DNA from: Paramecium tetraurelia
Taxonomy: Eukaryota
Direction of reading: 5' to 3'
DNA length: 64,000 nucleotides
Assembly (NCBI GenBank): GCA_000165425.1
Contig: CT867999.1
Coordinates: 62,001 to 126,000 of the forward strand
A program made the translations under genes and the position numbers. Below, piece by piece: positions 25,026 through 39,067 of the stretch (the first letter of the stretch is position 1; each line of letters opens with the position of its first letter). A model generated the notes under the pieces. It saw only the letters and a list, made by a program, of their open reading frames with translations. It made no database searches and was not told the origin of the DNA.

Positions 25026-28000
25026 ATCGCAATCTAATAAAATAAATACACTTTTTATAAGTTATTTGTCACTAATATTCTTAATTTTTTAATCCATATA
25101 CATTTATATAATTCAACATTTATCAATACATTAATTGAATTATTAAGAAAACTATTTCGAAAAGATTATTAAATTCCAAAAATATTAAATTAACATTAAG
25201 ACTTGTATATTGTTATAATATAAAGTAATTGATTATTTATATAATAATTATTTAAATTTTATAATGGTCTTTGATGAATTACAACAATTTGAATTTAATA
25301 AGAATTCTCTGGGAGATTTTAATTCTTTATGGCAAATTACACCATCAAATATAAATTATTATTACACAAAGATATTCTAATTAATTTTAATTCTCTTAAA
25401 ATTTATTATAAAGTTTGAAAATTAATATAAAGTTAATAGTTTGAAAATATCTTCTGTAGAAATAATTAATTCTCCATGCATTTAAATTAAAATTAGCCAT
25501 ATATTTTTATATTTTTTTAATTGAAAGCTATTTTGTTTTTATGTATTAAAATTTAGTGCTCCTTATTATGTTAATAAAATTATGAGTTTTCAAGGTTTAT
25601 GGTTAGAAAATATTAATAGATTAAACTTTTTGAAATCAGCCAAGCCCACAGAACATTATATATAAAGATATATAAGAAAGTAGATCAAAAAGAAATTGGT
25701 GGAAAAAGTTTTTCTAATATATTTTGCCATATAATTGAATTTTCTTAAGTAAATAATATTCTTGGTGCAGTAATTGTAGGAATACCTGAATCATCTTTTG
25801 AGTTAAGCATACCCAATAAGAAATAAATTGAAATTAATAAAATGAAAACCTGTTCTTTAGACGATATTCTCATTAAAGGAAAAATTGACATTTATGATCA
25901 TTTTAATATTAATAAATAAAATTTATCAAAATTTTTTATGATATTACTGAATTTCCTATCATTTTAATTATACATATTGCAATCATTGTTTACTTTTTAA
26001 TTTAATTAACAATTTTAATTGTAATTGAAAATATGATTAATAAACTCAATTCATATTGAATATAAACAGATACTTTTTTAATATTGATTGATTTGATTAT
26101 GGAGTTTATCAATAATGCTTAATTTAAATAAATTTAATAATGAAGCTAAATTCCGCCCATTAATAAGACTAATTTAAAAATTTTTAATTAGATTACATCA
26201 TCATGCACTTTTCCTTTATTTTTTTTCCCATATTTTCATTCCAAATGACTCTATACTATGAGGCCTTTACAGATCCTTCATTTATCACAAGTGAAGGTAT
26301 TTAGAAGTATTTTAATCTTAGACTGGGTTTTATAAAATGCTTTAAGTACTTATTCTGATTGCTCTGGAACAAGAATTTTAGGAGGATACAATGCCTTCGG
26401 ATATTAAGCTAAGGCTATGAAATTACTATTACTGCCTCCTCATTATATGATTTACATAACAATGTAATTCTGGAAGTATAATACTTTTTGTATATAGAAT
26501 TGATTCTTGGGATGGCGAAATATTATATATATACTTGGATGGAACTTTAAGTTATACAGCCTAATATAGTATAAGTGGCGTACAATAATGTGGTGCTACT
26601 TGGGGTGATGAAATGTATAGTCTAACAATTACACAGCCTCACGTGTTTTAGTCAGTAGTTATACTAATAACAACAAATCTTAGCTCTCTTCCAAATGATG
26701 TAATTTTATAGAAATATAAGAGGAATCTTGGGGTTTTAGAGAATTTAAACTCTATCTTGATTTATGCCCTCCTGGATGTAAATCTTGTTAGGCTAAGGAT
26801 TCAATTCTGGAATGCAGATCATGGACTCTCGCCAGTTCAGCATTTCTATCAGACCAGTTGCCTACCTTTAAAACAGAAGGATGGTCAATAACAAATGGAA
26901 TACAAGATACTACAGTTTGCTCTAGTAATATTATTAAGTTCTAAATAGGTATTCCTATTTTTGGCGGATATGGTAAATGCGGCGCTTCATCTGTAATCAC
27001 TGGAACTATTAGTATGCCTTAGCATTATTTGATTAAAATTAGATTTAGGATTGCATATATGGATTCCTGGGATACTGAAAAACTTTACTTTTACGCTGAC
27101 GGCAATTTAATATTTCAAAAATCTCATAATTATAACGCAGGTGGATTTAGAAGTTATTGTGGTTCTAATACTTATGATGATTACCTTCCAAATTATGAGA
27201 TAATAATGTTTCACACAAAAGAAAGTTTGGTTATAACATTTACTTCAACACTAAACGAAGGGTTTACAAATGAATCGCTTGGAATTAGAGACTTTGAAAT
27301 TTTTACATGTATTACATTGTATTATATTATAAAGATGATTGGGAGGATTGCGGTAATGGAATGAAAGAATCACAAGAATAATGTGATGACGGTAATATTT
27401 ATGCATTTGATGGTTGTTTTAATTGTGAATATTCATGTGTAGAAGGGTGTTCAAATTGTATTGATGGTATTTGTTTTGAATGTGATATTGGATGGATATT
27501 CTATTCAGATTTTAATACGTGTATTCCAATTGTAGATGATACTTAATATTAAATTTGGGAAGAATGTGATGATACATTATAATATGAGATTTGTTTAAAT
27601 GGAAAATTCTTTTGTCCATCAAATTGTAAATCTTGTTAATTTGGTATTTGTTTATAATGTAAATTAAATTATGAATTAATTAATAATAGATGTGAATCTA
27701 TATGTTAAAATTAATTAATACTTAATGATATATAATGTACTGATTATAATCTTCAACCATTTGATAAATGTCATTAATGTTATTATGATCTACAACAAGG
27801 TTGTTAATTATAATCAAATGGATTTTGTATCCAATGTTTAAATGGATGGATATTAGATATAAATTAAAATATTTGTATTCCAATTTGTGGAGACCTTATT
27901 ATATTAGGTGATGAATAATGTGATATTAATAAATATACTAAATCATCATTTGGTTGTAATTAATGTGAATTTGATTGTTAATATGAATGTACTGATTGTT

Positions 28001-30250
28001 AATTTGGAAAATGTTATGATTGTATTCCAGGATGGAAATTAAAAAATTACTAATGCGAATCTGATTGTGGAAATAAATCAATCTAAGGTTAAGAAGAATG
28101 TGATGATATGAATTCTATTAGATTTGATGGATGTAATAATTGTAGAAATGATTGTTAAAGAGAATGTTCATATTGTTAAAAAGGAATCTGTTTAGATTGT
28201 ATATATGGTTGGCATTTAACTGATCATTTCATTTGTGAAGCTGAATGTGGAGATAATCTAATTGCTTTGATTTCATATGAAGAATGCGAAGATTCTAACT
28301 ATGTTTAATTTGACGGATGTTATTAATGTAAAATGGAATGCTGTCATTATTGCGATGTTTGTGTATATGGATATTGTTATAATTGTGAATATACATTTAC
28401 ATTAATTGATTAATATTGTATTCCAGTTTGTGGAGATGGATTAGTTACTGTTGGATATGAATAATGCGATGATATGAATGAAATGCCTTATGATGGTTGT
28501 TATAATTGTAATTACTAATGTAGAGAACATTGTAAATTATGTATTAAAGGGATATGTTAAGATAAGTGTTAGTATGGTTATGATGAAGTGGATTATGAAT
28601 GTTTACCAAGATGTGGTGATGGTATAATAGTTGAAGAAGAGGATTGCGATGATTAAAATGATGATTTATCTGATGGATGTTATAAATGTAAATTTCATTG
28701 TCCAGATCATTGTGAAATATGTGATTAAGGAAAATGTAAATTATGTGAATAAGGTTTTGAATTAAATGTTATTCTAAATTAATGTCTAACATATTGTGGT
28801 AATGGCATGGTTTCCTAATAAGAAGAATGTGATGATATGAATAAAGAGGATGGAGATGGTTGTTCAAGATTTTGTAAGATTGAAAGCGATTATCAATGTA
28901 GAAATTAAGAATTAAGTTTTTCATAATGTACTTATTCTAAACAACCAAGATTCTATCTTTAGTTTAAAGAAGAAAGAGATTAAAAATAATATGTTTCATT
29001 ATTATTCACTTAATAAGTTAAGTATTTAAATTAAGATTTATATTCCAAATACATATAAATGAATCTTATTGATATAGACATTGATATCTATTAATTGAAT
29101 TTGATTGTTATTTAAGAACCAGTTGAATATCCAAAAAATGTTGAGTACATAATAGAAATTTAAATAAATTAAACTTTATCTATTCGTCCTTACTTAGAAG
29201 TTACTTTAGATGAATAATTATATAATTCAGAAGATAATACACTTTTTAATTAGTATGATAAAATTTAATTAAAATAGCCTAGGTATATAGATGATTAAAA
29301 ATAAGAAGCAGCGGCTACTTTAAATTAAGCAAATAAATATTTGATGAATTCTGTTGGAGGAATTGGCATACTTGCTTTTTTCCTCGGAAATTCATTTATT
29401 TTTTCAAGTATTTTGGAAGTTTTACAATAATAATCTTATTTAAGATTTATTAATGTTGTATTTCCCTTTAATTTATTTATCTATTTTGAAGCAAGTAACA
29501 TAATAACTATGAAACCTATTTTATAATTCTTTAAAATTGATTCCTTAATGGCACCAACATTTGATTCAATATATATAGAATCTTATGAAAAACTGAAATT
29601 TTATGAAATTAATGCTGATCTATAAACTAACATTTAAACCTAAGTATTTCTCATTATAATCTTAATTATCATTTATTATTCTTGTGCTTTGCTTATAATT
29701 ATTATAGATGCAATCAAATTAGAATCATTACTTTTCATTGGTAAATATGGATATAAACTACTGATTTAAGTAAGAAGATTGTGTTGTAACTATTAGAAAG
29801 AATTTCGAAAGGATGGGGTTAAGGCATTTCTAATAGCAAATTGTTGGGATCTTTTTTTTACTTGCTTTTTGCAATTGAAATCATCACAATCATATACTAC
29901 ATTTAGATCCATAATTTGTTTACTCTTCGCATATCTAATATTTTATGGATGCTTGTTAATACTTAGATAATATATTTATAAGAATGAATTAATCAAACAA
30001 AATTGTTTTAGTTATTGGATTTCAAAAATGGATTTATTTTTCACTTTAAAAAAATTAATTTTCATTTTTATTTTAGTATGCTTCCAAAAAAATGAGTAAA
30101 TTCAAACAATCTTATTAACATTTGTATGTAATTTATATCTCTTTTATGCAATCAAATTCAAACCAGCCATAAATCAACAGGACTATTGCAATTTACTTAT
30201 GATGGAAGGAAGTGCCTTTATGTTTACCTTAACATCCTCTATGTATTGGA
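20988..30250. repeat. Long inverted repeat: arms about 20988-23890 and 27349-30250, spacer about 3.45 kb
   Basis: Reverse complement of the left arm matches the right arm base for base with scattered substitutions, from TGCGGTAATGGAATGAAAGAA to CTATGTATTGGA. Confidence 0.93.
25264..26037 (+). pseudogene. Possible decayed or hypothetical gene in the inverted-repeat spacer
   Basis: Protein-like segments (MVFDELQQFEF.., APYYVNKIMSFQGLWLE.., ILGAVIVGIPESSF..) not joined into one clean frame. Confidence 0.3.
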
Positions 30251-30474
30251 GTTAGATGTCTAATTTATTTACTTATGATACACAAGTGTTATTGGGTTGG
30301 GGACATATTGTATTATTGCTATCGGTGTTAATCATCAATCTTCTTTTATAAATAATTACTCTATTTTAGTAATTAAAAATGTACGTAAAAAAAAAATTAT
30401 GGAAAACAGATTAGAAACATTTTATGAACTCAAACCCTTACCCATTAACTAATCTGATGGAATTCAAATTGTGA
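26203..30474 (+). CDS. Cys-rich multi-TM surface protein, paralog B
   Basis: Signal peptide; two DSWDxE domains interrupted by short introns; CGxG/ECDD repeats; multi-TM tail ending NPYPLTNLMEFKL* (TGA 30472-30474). Confidence 0.9.
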
Positions 30475-30578: not shown

Positions 30579-31919
30579 TCATTAATTTTGTACTTTTTTT
30601 AAAGGTTTTTGATTTATTTCTTTTTTTTTTACTTCTAAAATTACTCCATAAGCTATCATATGACGGTTATCTACAATTGCTATTTTTCCTAATTAAGGAT
30701 AATCAAAATGATTTTCTAAAGTAATCTACTTTATAGGTTTAAATTCAACAACTCCTACATCTCCAGCTTTTAAATCCTAAGGATTCTCAATATTTTGATT
30801 TTAATCATTAAGACTTGTTTTTTATGAAATTTACACAATGCTACATTACATTCTTTTAGTTAGGAAATGTATTGTATAATACTACTTTGGCTTGAGTTAA
30901 TGCTTAAAGTCTTCCATGAGCTTTAATTTTACTACAAATGTTGCACATTCTAAAGCTGGATTATTATCAATGTCTGAAAAAACATATCCATTTTTAATAT
31001 CTTTGTGGGAAAGATTAGATAAATGAACTCCAATTAAATAGCCAGGAAATCCTTTGTTTAAAATAAAATGATGATTTTCAATTGCTTTTACACTTGATTT
31101 AAGTGGAACTGGAGCAAAGCTTAAAATCTAATTTGGCATCAATGTTCCATACAATAATTTTCCAAGAGCAACAGTGCCAACTCCAGGTATTTTAATACAA
31201 TCATGCATTACAAATCTGAGGGGCTTGCTAACTAAATCTTCTATATCATCAATTTGGATCTGATCTAGAGCTTCAATTAAGGTTGGACCCTTATACCAGT
31301 CCATATGTTATTTCTTTGTGTTGATATTTTCAGCATCTATTAAAGATATTGGAACAAAGGAGATTTATTTTGGATTTATTTCAAATTTTGCTAAACGCTA
31401 AGAGAAATCATTCACAACATATTCATAGCAATCTTATTGATATTCAACTAAATCCATATCGTTAATGGCACAAATGATGTGCTTTTTGCCCAAAGCCATC
31501 CATAATCGTAGTTGTAATTCCAGAGTGCTTTATCCTTTAAAATCTTACACATATTTTTCTTTAACTCCGCTCAATACAAAAACTGCAATCTCTCCATAAG
31601 CAATTCCAAGTTACATTTAGTTTATGTATTAATATTACCCCGGGATATTGATCAAAGTGTACTTTTTATTTGATATTGTAAAATGAAAAGTCGAAAATAT
31701 TTATGTTTGTTTTGTTTTACGCTCAGTTCTAAGACGATCCATCAAAAAAGCATATCTCAGATGAGGATTTTCTTAAACCTATGGATGTTCATCGATTCTC
31801 ACTAAAGCATATGGAGAAACATAATTTAATTCGTTGACTATTAGGCCAGCTACTGTTGATTTCCCTTAACCATGAGCTCCTAAAAGGACAACCAAATGAT
31901 TGCCTATTTCTTGTTACAT
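30579..31919 (-). CDS. Highly divergent eEF1A-like translational GTPase paralog
   Basis: Intronless 446 aa: GAHGQGKST, RYAFLMDRLRTER, FVPIS..ENI..MDWYKGPTLIEALD, KPLRF..IPGVGTVALGKL, domain III LKAGDVGVVEFKP..YPQLGKIAI. Confidence 0.9.
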
Positions 31920-32121
31920 AAATGCTTTACTTAAATGATAATGATACAAAATTGCTTTTATAAACACAATTTGATAATATAGAATAATCGTTTTGACAGA
32001 AACAAATTTATATTTATCAATACTTAGGGGAAAGTTGAAAGATATAAGATTGCTTTAAAAAAAGTAATTAATAAACAAAATTATTTTATTAAAATAAATA
32101 GGTTTATACTAACTTAAATAA

Positions 32122-33078
32122 ATGAATAAACAAAGCTTATAAGAATTTAAAGTAAATATCTGCTAAAACGCTTCATGTTAAGTAAGATAGGATCATGTTT
32201 TACCATTATAATAAATGATATAGTGTTAATATTATCACAATAATAGTGACAAAAGAAGAAACAGTAATAATTATAAGCCAATATACATATCTGATTCAAA
32301 TAATGAGGCGAATGACTTTTGCAATAATATTATTGAATATTTGTATCATCCTCGAATATATGGTACTCTGCCATGCAAATTTTAAAAGTAAAAATAAAAA
32401 TAAATAAAATAAAATCAGATCTTAGAATTGCAAAGCTCAACATTGTCCATTTAAGCATGATGAAAATTATATAAAATAAGCATTTCAATACAAAATATTC
32501 ACAAAATTAAATTAGATCTTGGAGAGCAAATCAAAGGAGAATGATGTATGATATATATTAAAATATTTAGTTAATATTTAATTCTAAAAAATACATTCAA
32601 CGAATAGAGATCGATTAATTTGAAGATTTGAAACACGAGTTTAAACAATTTAAGGAGATTCGAATGGATTTGATAATGAATTACATATGTGCTTTTTTGA
32701 ACTCTTAAGGCGGAATCTTATATATAGGAATCACAGATAAAGGAATAGCCTAAGGAATCAAAATGACAAGGAAGTAAAAGGACGACTTTCAAATTGAATT
32801 CGATAACATTCTGAGACACTTTGATCCAATCGTTCTACCATAGTAAGTTGAATTAATGTTTGTTCCTATTTACAAAGATGAGCTAATAATGATATAGGAT
32901 TTATTTGTTATTGAGATAAAAATTAATGTTGTAGATAAAAAATAATTATATTTCACTAATTAAAATGAAGCCTATATCAAGAGAAACGCAACGATTAATT
33001 AGTTGAAGCCTAAAGAAATAAAGTAATATTATTTATTGTATAAAAAGAGATTTAGTACTTCTTAAGTTGATGAGTTGA
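32122..33078 (+). CDS. Unkempt-type CCCH zinc finger + Schlafen/AlbA_2 domain protein (291 aa)
   Basis: LQEFKVNIC..C..H..CQYYH..DKRR; EYLYHPRIYGTLPC..C..HCPFKH; then FEDLKHEFK, YICAFLNSQGGILYIGITDKGIAQGI, FVIEIKI, AYIKRNAT. Introns 32388-32418, 32546-32570 and 33023-33047 keep frame. Confidence 0.88.
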
Positions 33079-33926
33079 TTATAAATATTGTTTTATTGTA
33101 CTAATTAAATCTTCTAATGACATGGATTATTTCTGTATCTTAAACAAATAAATTAATAAGATTTCATATATTAAATTTCACATTCAATTTTCAAGTTATC
33201 TTTCATCAATAATGGCTTCTAATTTTAATTATATCTTCATATTATTCATAATGACTGATTGTGCATCATTAATTTAAATGTCATAAAATTATATAGAATA
33301 AAGATATCTATTATAATATTATCTTGAATATCTACTTTATTAAGAAAGATAATCATAATATACCAAAGGAGCAAGAATCATAACAAATCTATTAAATACT
33401 TAACAAGATGCTTGGAAGAAGAAGCATAAATAAAAGTTTAATATATTTAAAATGGTAATAAATTTTGAGATTATTATTTTTATTAATTTGAGTTTCAAAA
33501 TAGAAATGATATATTAATAATTTTAGATTGGTTAGATTAAGTTAAAGATGGATCAATTTTTTTAATTTTTATCTATTTCTTAAATTTGGTTGGATTATTA
33601 CAGTATTTTCAGGCCATAAACTAGTTATTTAGAAGATAATAGTAATAAGAATTATGAATATTATATGATTATAATATTCTTTCTCCACATTGGAATATAA
33701 AACAAATAGTTATAAATTGTTATGTTATCTTGCTGTTTTAATCAAATGATATATTTGTATTGCTGAAAATTTTATGATCTACTCAGAACCGAGAATATAA
33801 TATGATGGATTCCCTTAAATTTAAGTATTCAAAATGCTTTATAAAAAAGAATAGAAAATTAATAATTTTAATATGTTTTCGTTTTAGAAAGTCATAATAC
33901 TTGAGCAAAGGCTGACAATTTAGATT

Positions 33927-35331
33927 TCAGCATAATTTACTTTTGGTAAATGAAACATTGATTTTTCTGCCCATTACTTCCTTACCATGAAGTAGAGCTG
34001 CTCCATTCAATGCTTCTTCTAATGATGATAGTCTTACTAATGCCATGTGCTTTTATCTAAATGCTAATATTTACTATACTTATCAATATGTATGAATTTA
34101 ATCGCCTAAACATTTCCAATTCCTTTGAATAATTCCTTAATGTAAGATTCTTCCTCACATATTTTACCTTTTATGTTACTTAAATGTAAGGTCTGACTTG
34201 GTGGATTGATGGAGATTGACTTTGATTCACTAAATCTAAATTAAGATTTTTGTGGCACAAACACTACAGTCTATGGTGATTGAATTGGTAGAGGTAATTA
34301 TATTTCTTAGTAATTCGAATAAAAGATTTTAAGCTTTGAGCCAAAAAAGACTTAATTGTTCAAATGATCTAAAGCATTTTAAGCATGGGAGAGTTTCTAA
34401 AATTGAACTAAGGCTGATGCTTTATGTTTAATTTAAATGATAGCTAACACATTTCCAAAATTGGACAATAAATTAAAAATGTTTAATGGTGTAATATTTT
34501 AATTAATGAGACCTCTTATATAAACTACTTTAGAGGGCTAATTTTCTCTAAGAAATTAAGGTGATACATAAGTATATGGATCTATGTCTTGGTTTTTTGT
34601 TTTATCTTCTACTTCTGGAATGGAAAACATGTAGGAATTCAGATATATATTTTTTTCAGATGAAAATGCAAGCATTATGTCTTCGTCGATGGGATCATGT
34701 TCATTATCATCACATTAAATAGATTTGTAGGATGAAAACTGATTGTATCTAGGAGAATCTCCATCATCAATAAATTCCAGCGAAGTTAATATTCTTGAAG
34801 GTTCCCATTCATTTTTTTATTCCTATAGTTCATATTTATCGTTTAAGCTAGCCCTCGTTCCTTCATTCCAGATACCGACAAAACTTTATTTGATATCTTA
34901 TTAATGCTAGAATATAGTAGGTTAACTAAATGTTTTGGAATGATAGTCATGCTCATAATTGTTAGTGGTTTTTGTAGAATTTCCCTGTCTAATCGATTTG
35001 TAATCTACACCCCCTGAATTATTGTTGAGGAAGGTGACATTCTACAATGTCGAATAATAACTAAAAGACTTAGACAATAAATTTACACATTCATGATTGT
35101 TTAATCATACAATTAACATCCATTTAATTATTACTAAGAAAACCTCGCTTATTATAAAGTGGCCATCTCAACAAAGCATTTCCATAGTTTGCCCTTCTCA
35201 AATATCAGAATTTTATCCACCTCTCCAAAATTAGAGAAGTATCGATAGAACAAGGAATGTGGTAGCATTATTGATTAAGGATTCTATACAATCACCAACA
35301 ATACTTTAGTTTACTCATTCTCAGATATCAT
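33927..35331 (-). CDS. PTB/hnRNP L-like multi-RRM RNA-binding protein
   Basis: KVLLVIV..YFSNFGEVDKILIFEK..CFVEM; PSKVVYIRGL..FNLLSNFGNV..ALVQF; PPSQTLHLSNI..MALVRL..INVSFTKS. Start could lie slightly further upstream. Confidence 0.85.
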
Positions 35332-35559: not shown

Positions 35560-38500
35560 ATGCAAGTCTTAATTAATTCAATCTATGAATCATCTGGAGA
35601 CACCAGAATTGAATTAATTAACTTAATGCAAGAGGACATCAAAGCAAAAAAGGGAATTGTTCTGGGTGACTTAAGCAGAATGTTCATCATGATAAACCAG
35701 ATGCTCATGGATACAAATAAATAAGTGATCTTAGCTACTCATGGATTGCTGTCATCTGTATGTCTATTAACTTAATATGTCAAGCTAATTGATTACCTAT
35801 TACCAGCTGAATTAGAAGGAGGTCTAAAACACTTTGAAAATTAGCTTGTACATAATCTGGCTGACAGCGATAGACAGATAAGGAAATCAACCAAGGCCAT
35901 TTTCCTTAAATTCATTGCTAAGACTAGAAATTCAGAATAGGTTTTGGAACTATTAAGCGAATCCTTTAAAAATAAAAATTTTTATATTAGAGAAAGAGCT
36001 ATAAATTTAATCCCTGATATTTTTATAGCAGATAAGTCAATATTTTGCAATAGAACTGGGTAGACTTGTAAATTAATTTAGAATTAATGAAGTGAGAAAA
36101 GTTATTGAATCTATAATAATTCACTTAAACGACGTTAACGAATCTGTTCGAAAAGCAAGTAAGAAAGTGATTTAGAATCTCAAGAACATTGAAAATTTTG
36201 AATTAGTTTATAGAAGATTAGCAATTTAGCATTAAAATGTAGTTGATAAAATACAACAAGAAATGCCCCCAAAGGTTGATAAATTTATTGAATTGAATTT
36301 CAAGATCTAAGAACACACAGATCCACTGATTGATTAATTCGTACCCTTTGAGTTTATAGCAAAAACTAATCTAACTATAGATGATTTTCCCTATGATTTA
36401 AAGACATAATTATATTTTGGCTTTTTGCCAAAGGAGATACTCTAAGACACCTTGAATCAAAAAGATCTAGCGATTAGAGAAAAGGGAATTACAGAATTAA
36501 ACATGTAGTTTTTTGAAGATGAGAGTGAACCCTAAAATTATGACCAAAAAACAGTGGATAAAATAGTAAGGGGAAGCTTTATGCCATCATTCTTCAAATA
36601 CATCTCTTCCTTGTTTTTTAGTTAAGACAAGAAAATAATATTGATGATCCTAAATATTGTTGGCAAAGTTATGCAAGTTCCAGGAGTTTAAGTAAATGTT
36701 TATTTGCCCCTTTGTTTGCCCGGATTAATCTAATGTCTTAAGGATGAAAGAGTAGTTATCAGGTAGAAGGCACTGTTTCTGTTGAGGAAACTAACAAATT
36801 ACATCAGCAAGAAATAATATTTTTAAAACTTAATATATTTCTTAGAGTAAAATATGGACAATTGGCATTAGAAGGAAGAAATACTAAACTTGATTTCTTA
36901 TTTGGTGTTGATGATTCATCCAAGTGAATAATGGTTTTATGGAGTTGATTTGAAGGAAATGAATATAAAATAAGAAAAATAAGTTGAGGAATTGTCCTTT
37001 AATCTACGAGAAGTAGACTTTAAAAAGAGCTTGATTGCTATTGCTTCTTATCTAAATGATCCTATAGCTAAAGTTAAGTTTGCTTCTCTGGAATGTCTTA
37101 GTTTATTAGCTTATTTAGACAAGAAGCATCTGGAATACCTACATGAAGTTCTGAATAATTAAGTTTATGAAAAGTTGAATGATAAGGTAGACAATGGAAT
37201 TGTATATTTTATAAATGAAAATGGAAATTTGGAATTACCTTAATTTAATATCAAAAAATTAGAAGAACAAAAAATACAATCATAAATTAAATTGTCAATG
37301 GTTTAATCCGTGTAAAGTGAGCCTAAACCTTAAACTCCAGTAGAATCAGAAAAATCAGAAGAAAGTCGTTATAAAATAACCTATTACTATGATAAGTTTC
37401 AAATGTCATTGAATGATAAAATCATTAAATCAAATGCCTCAATTGATAGTTTGTTCGCTTCAGAGCACAAAAATAATCAAGGAACTAAATATGATATGAT
37501 AATTCCAATAGGATAATTTTAACAGACGAAAGCGAATGAGTAATTCAAATTAATCAACTCTAACATATATTTGGAAAAGGAAAAGGTAGATGATAACCCA
37601 TATGAAGATGAGGTTATGCATTCTGATGAAGAGGAATTGCAATCTATTGAATTTGAATACCCAACACGAACTCTGAAATATAGAGGCCATGCTCCAGATC
37701 AAATAACAAAATCTAAATATTAACCTATTGATGATATAAAGTCTAGGGTGTTTCATACAATTAAATAATTAAACGAGGACATCAATGTAGACTTACAAAT
37801 ACCTAAGGTTATTAAGGCTAACGTAGGAGCCTATTCTGGGTATAAATATGAAAATGAGGAGGAAGCAGATGATGAAGAAATATTTATTGATACAAAACTA
37901 ATAAAATAACAACATAAATTAACACAACCTACATAAGAAGAATCAATAGAATTTGAAGAAAAACTAGTTAAAGAAAACCTTGTGGATAATCAAATAGAAT
38001 ATGTTTAAGAAATAATAAAGAATTAATAATTGATTTACACTCCAGAATAAAGATATCAGAAAAGGTTAGATGAATTTCTCTTATCTTTTGAGTAAAGAGA
38101 TGGAAAAAATAAAGGAAGAAATGCAAGAAAATTAAAGAAGAAGCTTAAAGAGATTGCAAAATAGGAGGAATTACCAAGAGTGTTTGATATGCCTGTTTAT
38201 ATTGATAATGCTAGAGCAGAAACTGCTGCCTTGTTGATTAATTTATCCTCTTTAAATTTGGATTTATTGGCAATGTCACTACATAAGTTTAGAGTATTGT
38301 TATAGAATCATTTATCCGATGTATATGCCTCATAGGTTCCATTGTTATAAATTGTGAATGATGTATGCAGAATCTTGTCAACATAAAGTAATAATCCACT
38401 GTATGCTATTGATTATTCATAATATAAAAAGAATATACCTCCGTAGATAGTTGTGAGAAAAATAGTTTTTATTGCTCTTTAGACTTTGAGTATTGCAGTG

Positions 38501-39067
38501 CAAACTTTGAGAAGTACGTTAATTTAAGTCTAGAAAATGTTTACTGTTTGTGGAGTTTGGGTTTAGGATGAGAATAAATAAGTGAGTCAATAGGCTGAGC
38601 AAACTATGCTTGACATATTGAGATTTTGCGACGATTCTTAATTGTAGAACATATTACCAAATCTATATAACAAATAATCTTTTAATAGCAAAATCTATGT
38701 TGGCGTCCTCATTGAACATTTAATAATAAAGTATCAAAAAGAAATATTTAAATCAGTTCATTTTGTTAATATCATCTAATTGATATCTTAGATGGTCATA
38801 GATCAATCTTTTGATGTGAGAAGGATTGGAAAAAAAGTATTTTTTAAGATCTTAACTCTCGGAAAATATCAAATCGATGAAATTGTTATGTAAATGCATT
38901 TATAAGAGAAGAATCAGATGAAAGAATTAATGCAGAGATATGACGAATTAGTTACTGATCATTAAATTGGAATCTTCGATTAGGAGGAGTACATGGGATT
39001 ATAGGTGATGCCCCAAAAATTCAATTTTGAATATGAAATGATAGATGACCAAATATACATGAAATGA
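35560..39067 (+). CDS. TOG/HEAT-repeat protein (TOGARAM/crescerin-like)
   Basis: HEAT repeats (NLADSDRQIRKST, KNKNFYIRERA, LIQCLKDERVVIRQKA, LNDPIAKVKFASLECL, DQSFDVRRIGK) split by a charged linker; TGA 39065-39067. Confidence 0.72.

Follow-up and report, generated by a model that had tools for sequence, protein, structure and literature searches.

The gene at positions 32122–33078 on the plus strand of the 64-kb stretch of Paramecium tetraurelia DNA analysed here (the window is that whole stretch) is the macronuclear gene GSPATT00029501001, and it codes for a 291-residue protein built from two modules: an N-terminal cluster of CCCH zinc fingers of the Unkempt type and a C-terminal AlbA_2 domain of the kind found in the Schlafen and SAMD9 nucleases. 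The zinc ligands of the intact fingers and the putative catalytic residues of the nuclease fold are kept in most members of a family of similarly built proteins. The reading that we favour, with confidence a little better than even, is that the protein is a metal-dependent endoribonuclease brought to RNA by its own finger cluster. Neither a new fold nor a new principle is involved, as both domains are known, the gene has been annotated automatically, and AlbA_2 is promiscuously fused; what is new is that known folds occur in an undescribed, conserved combination with the catalytic residues intact. The gene and both domains already carry automatic labels in public databases, where the UniProt title is "C3H1-type domain-containing protein". 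A literature search that covered few subscription journals and no supplements turned up no account of the fusion, of its family or of the gene, no paper combining Unkempt with Schlafen, and none naming the gene identifiers. An earlier interpretation made from the letters alone (the sequence-only reading) had likewise known of no characterisation of such a fusion.

The window is AT-rich (22–38% G+C), and the region 32122–33078 is coherent only under the ciliate code (table 6), in which the spliced coding sequence of 876 nt uses 15 TAA and 7 TAG codons for Gln and has one TGA. Its product is letter for letter the database protein P0159 (GSPATT00029501001 / XP_001426269.1). The sequence-only reading had proposed three tiny, canonical introns and a 291-residue product. 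The product stands, and the introns are indeed short, but TAG, the common intron acceptor in Paramecium, closes only one of the three (intron 2; the others end in CAG and AAG).

The gene is expressed as one spliced RNA, with introns 1 and 2 removed in assembled contigs. These contigs come from run X3, presumed rather than recorded to be RNA, and were mapped on 31800–33500 along with raw reads of three oligo-dT RNA sequencing runs that were picked by species label (X21–X23, growth stage unrecorded), which gave 41, 47 and 16 reads. X3 record 5 covers 32438–33010 with a single gap of 25 bases at 32546; therefore intron 2 has been removed, and the codons of finger 3 from Q96 onward, with C98 and H102, share a contig with the AlbA_2 domain. 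The sequence-only reading had placed both domains in one mRNA and had named separate mRNAs as the finding that would speak against it; with part of finger 3 and the AlbA_2 domain on one spliced contig, that objection is answered. In X3 record 4, 20 contig letters stand against 51 genomic bases at 32376–32426, so that 31 bases are missing, which fits intron 1; the exact ends of this intron were taken from P0159 because the mapper skipped the repeat-rich stretch. X3 record 2 is ungapped across 32102–32280, and the 5' untranslated region is therefore at least 20 nt long. Furthermore, the first mate lies on the minus strand in all X21–X23 reads on the gene, and the opposite holds on the divergent upstream neighbour, which fits transcription from the plus strand. 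A fourth intron within finger 1 (a 42-nt in-frame GTA..TAG at 32182..32223, plus strand) was considered and rejected, being retained in X3 record 2; its translation, VRQDHVLPLQQMIQ, recurs, little altered, in each of the six aurelia-complex proteins and is coding.

No read or contig crosses intron 3, as X3 record 5 stops 12 nt short of it, at 33010, and the raw reads end at about 33000. Because coverage stops there, this intron is taken from the annotation and from the conserved C-terminus. The ending DLVLLKLMS is common to the six aurelia-complex proteins, with one or two changes in some, and in the P. primaurelia model the counterpart of intron 3 is read through in frame and the protein still ends in ...RDLVLLKLMS. 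Alternative 3' ends were rejected. Reading through 33023–33047 continues the frame to a TGA at 33252–33254 with a low-complexity tail, and acceptors at 33049 or 33055 lead into the same read-through frame; the annotated 25-nt intron was chosen because no other choice brings back the conserved ...KEIKDLVLLKLMS end.

P. tetraurelia also has P0160 (GSPATT00024817001), a protein 94% identical to P0159 that appears to be its ohnolog from whole-genome duplication. Proteins from P. primaurelia, P. octaurelia and P. sonneborni fall into the same 90%-identity cluster as P0159. Two further gene models look irregular. P0154 (P. sonneborni, 313 aa), a paralogue model 60% identical, lacks the AFLNSQG segment and has at residues ~55–130 a stretch resembling the finger region out of frame, so that its sequence points to a copy in decay or else to an error in the gene model. 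P0163, a P. bursaria homologue model of 567 aa, lacks finger 3 and continues into an unrelated P34-Arc (PF04045) region, and is probably a merged or mis-spliced model.

To define the family, a phmmer search with the AlbA_2 exon returned 1197 proteins at E <= 0.001 and 180 at E <= 1e-10, and the best 150 representatives were taken on. CCCH-type patterns lie upstream of AlbA_2 in 31 of these. The family alignment (n = 29) holds 27 of the 31 together with P0159 and P0160; excluded were the near-identical ortholog P0004, the N-terminally truncated P0028 and P0032, and P0057, which has another finger type and a WWE domain. At least 27 other protein clusters thus share the finger–AlbA_2 architecture. 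The few named carriers are all ciliates (Paramecium species, Climacostomum virens, represented by P0014, and Furgasonia blochmanni, represented by P0072), which represent three ciliate classes spanning the deepest split in the phylum. Word-index protein searches gave 4 and 6 relatives. Within the window no second AlbA_2 or finger copy was found, as a hidden Markov model of the family run against 1182 six-frame open reading frames matched only two frames of the gene itself.

The nuclease module is identified by sequence, by profile and by fold. Pfam SLFN_AlbA_2 (PF04326) matches residues 149–276 at E 2.2e-20 and 73.8 bits (cut-off 25.3), covering profile positions 1–117 of 118, and matches the exon alone at E 2.3e-21; no other Pfam family is found in the 291-residue protein at E <= 0.01. 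When the PDB was searched with phmmer, SLFN14, SLFN12, SLFN11 and rat SLFN13 were the only significant matches (E 2e-5 to 1e-3), with FEDLKHEFK aligned to FTESTHVEFK and GGILYIGITD to GGYVLIGVDD. An AlphaFold2 model built from the 29-sequence family alignment has a mean predicted local distance difference test score (pLDDT) of 84.6, rising to 89–97 over residues 141–280, across the AlbA_2 domain. Foldseek gave 36 PDB matches at E <= 0.001, and those listed are all Schlafens, SAMD9, bacterial AlbA_2 proteins or Unkempt. In VIA-align the top match is the hSAMD9 domain 7ksp (Z 16.2, root-mean-square deviation (rmsd) 2.2 over 152 residues, model 134–291), followed by the rabbit SAMD9 tRNase domain 9o0d (Z 15.9; both SAMD9 matches rmsd 2.2–2.4 over 152–153 residues). 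The C-lobes of SLFN5/11/12/13/14 reach Z 11.7–13.8, so that the superposition on Schlafens suggested by the sequence-only reading succeeds and SAMD9 fits better. Overall the fold scores Z 11.2–16.2 against SAMD9, SLFN and bacterial DIP2311 structures and about 5 or less against unrelated folds.

The structural alignments to Schlafens are confined to chain residues ~177–350 and model residues 134–291. The protein has a single Pfam AlbA_2 stretch, and residues 1–108 are the finger cluster, so there is no two-lobed horseshoe core. Taken strictly, the name Schlafen requires two lobes, and a protein with a single AlbA_2 lobe falls outside it. As modelled, module 2 (about residues 136–291) is a single-lobe relative whose predicted shape is nearest the SAMD9 nuclease domain and whose active-site pattern is that of Schlafen. 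The Schlafen/AlbA_2 domain of the sequence-only reading thus holds in Pfam, in the PDB sequence search and in fold, but not as a Schlafen core of two lobes. A homodimer prediction for residues 136–291 scored 0.00 in two runs without controls, a score that favours neither a dimer nor a monomer, and the ESM Atlas returned a single AlbA_2 cluster without taxa.

All motifs that had been quoted for the Schlafen core and for the fingers are present, those of the core being FEDLKHEFK (148–156), GGILYIGITD (178–187) and AYIKRN (265–270). E149, E154 and K156 correspond, in an E-x4-E-x-K pattern, to E209, E214 and K216 of SLFN11. According to PMC9482658, E209 and E214 coordinate metal and any one of the substitutions E209A, E214A and K216A eliminates the Mn2+-dependent cleavage of tRNA, while D252A does not abolish activity. 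The sequence-only reading had assigned the RNase site to two glutamates and the aspartate after the glycine-rich strand. Its glutamate part is retained, and the aspartate part is weakened by D252A; because that change leaves SLFN11 activity, the stronger argument for a nuclease is E-x4-E-x-K, not the Asp.

Across the 29 family members the four positions E149/E154/K156/D187 read EEKD in 21 and EEKN in two, and each of the other six carries at least two substitutions; E, E and K are kept together in 23/29, and the D187 column is Asp in 22/29. The residues are lost jointly, not singly, and this is the pattern expected of one functional site kept in most lineages. Among the six aurelia-complex proteins, 8/131 positions vary in the AlbA_2 domain (148–278), 17/104 in the finger cluster (1–104) and 5/43 in the linker (105–147), and the variable positions include no catalytic residue and no zinc ligand.

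These patterns bear on whether the protein cuts at all. It could instead be a non-catalytic RNA-binding regulator in which both modules bind and mRNA stability, localisation or translation is set through recruited factors, like Unkempt. We think this quite unlikely, as E149, E154 and K156 are kept in the protein, its ohnolog and 23/29 family members, and the joint losses argue that selection in most lineages has been for catalysis; such a regulator would nonetheless suit the six of 29 members that lack at least two of the E-E-K-D residues and still keep finger 3, the nature of AlbA_2 as a nucleic-acid-binding fold, with the hSAMD9 domain crystallised on DNA (7ksp), and the existence of nuclease-deficient Schlafens, described in PMC9482658.

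Residues 1–108 form one Unkempt-type CCCH cluster, with fingers 1 and 3 complete and a degenerate finger between them. LQEFK begins at residue 6, and C14, C19, CQYYH (35–39) and DKRR (43–46) make up finger 1 and its tail, with H25 also present; EYLYHP (72–77) and C98PFKH102 belong to finger 3. Finger 1 has all its ligands (C14, C19, C35 and H39), with a 15-residue loop between the second and third, and its columns read CCCH in 26/29 family members. The ligands of finger 3 (C85, C93, C98 and H102, spaced C-x7-C-x4-C-x3-H) are invariant in 29/29. In the middle finger C67 is the sole tabulated ligand position that the 291-residue protein has, so its cluster has two intact CCCH fingers and not three; P0014, P0017, P0026 and P0056, a subgroup of the family, retain more Cys there. 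The two modules are connected by a helix (residues 105–125) and a hinge (residues 127–135) that is predicted to be disordered (pLDDT < 50).

The family profile matches Unkempt ZnF4-6 (5elk) at E 1.8e-13 over profile positions 8–113 and ZnF1-3 (5elh) at E 1.4e-4, in an alignment that opens with the lead-in YKTxxC, takes in CxYYHxxxDRRRxP and extends to E(Y/F)xxHPxxYKTxxC...CPxxH. Residues 1–108 of the model superimpose on 5elk with a VIA-align Z of 11.4 (rmsd 2.5, 97 residues). For the protein on its own the signal is weak (Pfam zf-CCCH_AtC3H23, E 0.023–0.042), and the Pfam UNK finger models match 4 and 1 of the 29 family members and not the 291-residue protein. The Unkempt-type assignment of the sequence-only reading is thus upheld by family profile and fold, with the qualification of a degenerate middle finger and a faint single-protein signal; of the two profile checks that it proposed, PF04326 recovers the AlbA_2 domain and the UNK models do not recover the fingers in this protein. 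According to PMC12136788, Unkempt ZnF4-6 binds UAG and ZnF1-3 binds A/U-rich RNA.

Pfam was also used to list the partners of AlbA_2 in 136 of the best 150 representatives, two proteins longer than 1100 aa and P0004 being among those excluded. AlbA_2 is matched in 135/136. Its partners include PemK/MazF (4), HEPN_Toprim_N (2), STAND-type NB-ARC and/or AAA_16 domains (7) and DNA methylase (2), and among RNA binders an RRM domain (1, P0132, plus P0164 outside the scan), a cold-shock domain (1) and zf-CCCH with WWE (1). Judged from these sequences, the set looks like the company of an effector nuclease in RNA-directed and conflict systems. Two relatives stand out for their layout. P0057 (405 aa) has two classical zf-CCCH fingers, then AlbA_2, then WWE, a pairing of finger and WWE that recalls ZAP/PARP12-type antiviral proteins, and P0005 (2337 aa) repeats the AlbA_2 core motif (EFK...AFANHQGGNVYFGI.DDG) in tandem some 20 times, in 20 matched stretches.

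The partners that are typical of defence, namely the STAND NTPase, MazF and HEPN architectures, would suit a translation shut-off enzyme of the SLFN11/13/SAMD9 kind, in which the AlbA_2 domain cuts tRNA or rRNA and the CCCH cluster is a sensor or a switch that responds, for instance, to foreign or stress-related RNA. The best fold matches, to the SAMD9 tRNase domain (Z 16.2 and 15.9), point the same way, as do the characterised nucleases of this fold described in PMC9482658 and PMC12331169, all of which cut tRNA; we nevertheless hold this version to be unlikely. A DNA-directed role, the binding or cutting of single-stranded DNA in macronuclear development or under replication stress, is very improbable. 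It is hinted at by the titles of structure entries alone (hSAMD9 with DNA, 7ksp, and SLFN5 DNA/RNA binding proteins), and set against it are the fused CCCH cluster, for which every solved relative is an RNA complex (5elk, 5elh), the RRM and cold-shock domains among the other partners of close relatives, and the derivation of the reads from oligo-dT RNA-seq runs.

In the favoured reading, that of an RNA-directed nuclease, the finger cluster would, by analogy with Unkempt, bind a short single-stranded RNA motif and dock the protein on a target RNA, and the tethered AlbA_2 domain would then cut nearby RNA in a reaction dependent on a divalent metal (Mn2+ in SLFN11). Helix 105–125 and hinge 127–135 may give the nuclease reach around the bound site, and the outcome would be a self-contained binder-plus-nuclease serving RNA turnover, surveillance or defence. 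The sequence-only reading had likewise proposed an RNA-targeting endoribonuclease, with a conceivable part in surveillance, defence or ciliate small-RNA biology. The analysis shows how the gene is built, that it is expressed as a single spliced RNA, what the two folds are and that zinc ligands and catalytic residues are conserved; binding to RNA, cleavage, the substrate and the role in the cell are inferred. Several observations weigh against it. The counterpart of D187 is dispensable in SLFN11; 8/29 family members lack the full E-E-K-D set, and since six of these carry at least two substitutions, parts of the family would work without catalysis; and SLFN5 and mouse SLFN2 are nuclease-deficient Schlafens. 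The active site of Schlafens normally lies in a groove between two lobes and SLFN11 acts as a dimer (these points as given in PMC9482658), compared with one lobe here. On the finger side, the 291-residue protein alone matches 5elk at E 0.084, and the C-x15-C spacing of finger 1 and the loss of ligands in the middle finger mean that Unkempt-like specificity is not transferable. The predicted template modelling score (pTM) of the model is 0.54, so the model does not predict how the two modules lie with respect to each other, and the literature searched held no biochemical or genetic data for any family member.

It is possible, if doubtful, that these proteins are an old ciliate family of minimal single-lobe Schlafen nucleases that predates the heterotrich split, in which an Unkempt-like cluster, most similar to the UAG-binding ZnF4-6, directs the cut to particular sequences in mRNA or viral RNA. 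If so, one polypeptide would be the equivalent of ZAP-KHNYN or Regnase-1 and the first Schlafen-type enzyme to draw its specificity from a separable reader domain, and a reader of UAG-like or A/U-rich motifs could be retuned for transcript surveillance in an organism where UAA and UAG encode Gln. The Schlafen and SAMD9 nucleases are heavily studied in mammalian antiviral defence and cancer-drug response, and they are large, much-regulated enzymes whose choice of substrate is debated. A single-lobe protein of 291 residues with intact catalytic residues and separable fingers would be a tractable model for the chemistry and targeting of the fold. It is conserved among ciliates, and P. tetraurelia, which is open to genetic work, has it as an ohnolog pair. 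It would extend RNA-directed Schlafen-type nucleases to free-living protists, and should interest Schlafen/SAMD9 and ciliate RNA biologists alike.

Table 1 Features of the finger–nuclease gene and of its neighbours in the window.
Feature	Position	Strand	Basis or remark
Minimum 5' untranslated region	32102..32121	+	Start of X3 contig record 2
Exon 1: residues 1–88 and two bases of codon 89; finger 1, degenerate middle finger, start of finger 3	32122..32387	+	Translation, P0159 match, contig coverage
Intron 1, 31 nt, GTA..CAG; splits finger 3	32388..32418	+	X3 record 4; exact ends from P0159
Exon 2: remainder of finger 3 (C93, C98, H102) and start of helical linker	32419..32545	+	Translation, P0159, contigs
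Intron 2, 25 nt, GTA..TAG	32546..32570	+	25-base gap in X3 record 5, depth 24.2
Exon 3: end of linker and complete AlbA_2 domain	32571..33022	+	Pfam, P0159; X3 record 5 over 32438–33010
Intron 3, 25 nt, GTA..AAG (inferred)	33023..33047	+	P0159 match and conserved C-terminus DLVLLKLMS
Exon 4; stop TGA at 33076–33078	33048..33078	+	P0159 match
Finger 1 with lead-in and tail: FKVNIC14-x4-C19-x15-C35-x3-H39 ... DKRR46	32149..32259	+	Aligns to Unkempt YKTxPC...CxYYHxxxDRRRxP
Finger 3 with lead-in, across intron 1: EYLYHPRIYGTLPC85-x7-C93-x4-C98-x3-H102	32335..32458	+	Aligns to Unkempt ZnF6
Schlafen/AlbA_2 domain, residues 149–276	32622..33005	+	Pfam PF04326, model, fold comparison
Putative catalytic motif E149-x4-E154-F-K156	32622..32645	+	Aligns to E-x4-EFK of SLFN14
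D187, after the GGILYIG strand	32736..32738	+	Aligns to second Asp of SLFN14 'GVDD'
DUF4215 cysteine-repeat protein: eight repeats, then hydrophobic stretches	27298–30474	+	Long open frame
eEF1A-family translational GTPase (GTP_EFTU, domain 2, domain 3, eEF1A C-terminal domain)	30579–31904	-	Pfam; divergent upstream neighbour
RRM protein gene (RRM_5 E 1.2e-14, RRM_1 E 1.7e-10)	34007–35104	-	Pfam; downstream neighbour
HEAT/CLASP_N repeat protein	35729–39067	+	Long open frame

The eEF1A-family gene begins about 217 bp from the ATG of the finger–nuclease gene (Table 1). Within it, run X22 shows G>A at 31886 and 31887 in 7/7 reads, which is probably a strain difference. As this is adjacency in a eukaryote, no functional link is drawn from the neighbours to the finger–nuclease gene.

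Among known systems, SAMD9/SAMD9L is the best structural match and shares with the 291-residue protein a single AlbA_2 lobe, which in the human protein is itself a tRNase (PMC12331169). The two differ in that identity is only about 20%, and SAMD9 is absent from the sequence and profile matches in PDB searches. SAMD9 is also a protein of ~1600 aa with a SAM-AlbA_2-SIR2-P-loop-TPR-OB layout, and none of these other modules is present here. The same source lists acidic E184/E196/E218/D241 and basic K198/K214/R221 as SAMD9 residues, so that the acidic spacing differs (E184/E196 as opposed to E149/E154), and the E-x-K pairs E196/K198 and E154/K156 are analogous by pattern only.

The C-lobes of SLFN11/12/13/14 offer a significant sequence match, a fold match at Z 11.7–13.5, the E-x4-E-x-K of SLFN11 E209/E214/K216 and an Asp after the GGxxxxG strand. 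Unlike Schlafens, the 291-residue protein has no N-lobe, no linker/SWADL region and no helicase domain, and its zinc fingers are a separate N-terminal cluster, whereas the Schlafen zinc site is structural and lies inside the core (PMC9482658).

The likeness to mouse Unkempt (ZnF4-6, 5elk; ZnF1-3, 5elh) is one of lead-in, spacing and the layout of inter-finger motifs. Unkempt proteins are defined by two clusters (six fingers) and a C-terminal RING finger; here there is one cluster, and the Pfam scan of the protein shows no RING family. In addition, the middle finger here lacks ligands and finger 1 has a 15-residue loop, and the effector is a fused nuclease, whereas Unkempt uses recruiting peptide motifs. 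With Regnase-1/ZC3H12A, which has a PIN nuclease and a CCCH finger, and with ZAP-KHNYN, a CCCH RNA sensor and its nuclease partner, the relation is an analogy of logic and not of membership: the PIN/NYN fold is unrelated to AlbA_2, and Pfam scans of the 291-residue protein and its family found no PIN or NYN family. What these systems would have in common with the Paramecium protein is a CCCH RNA-binding module joined to an endoribonuclease by which chosen RNAs are broken down.

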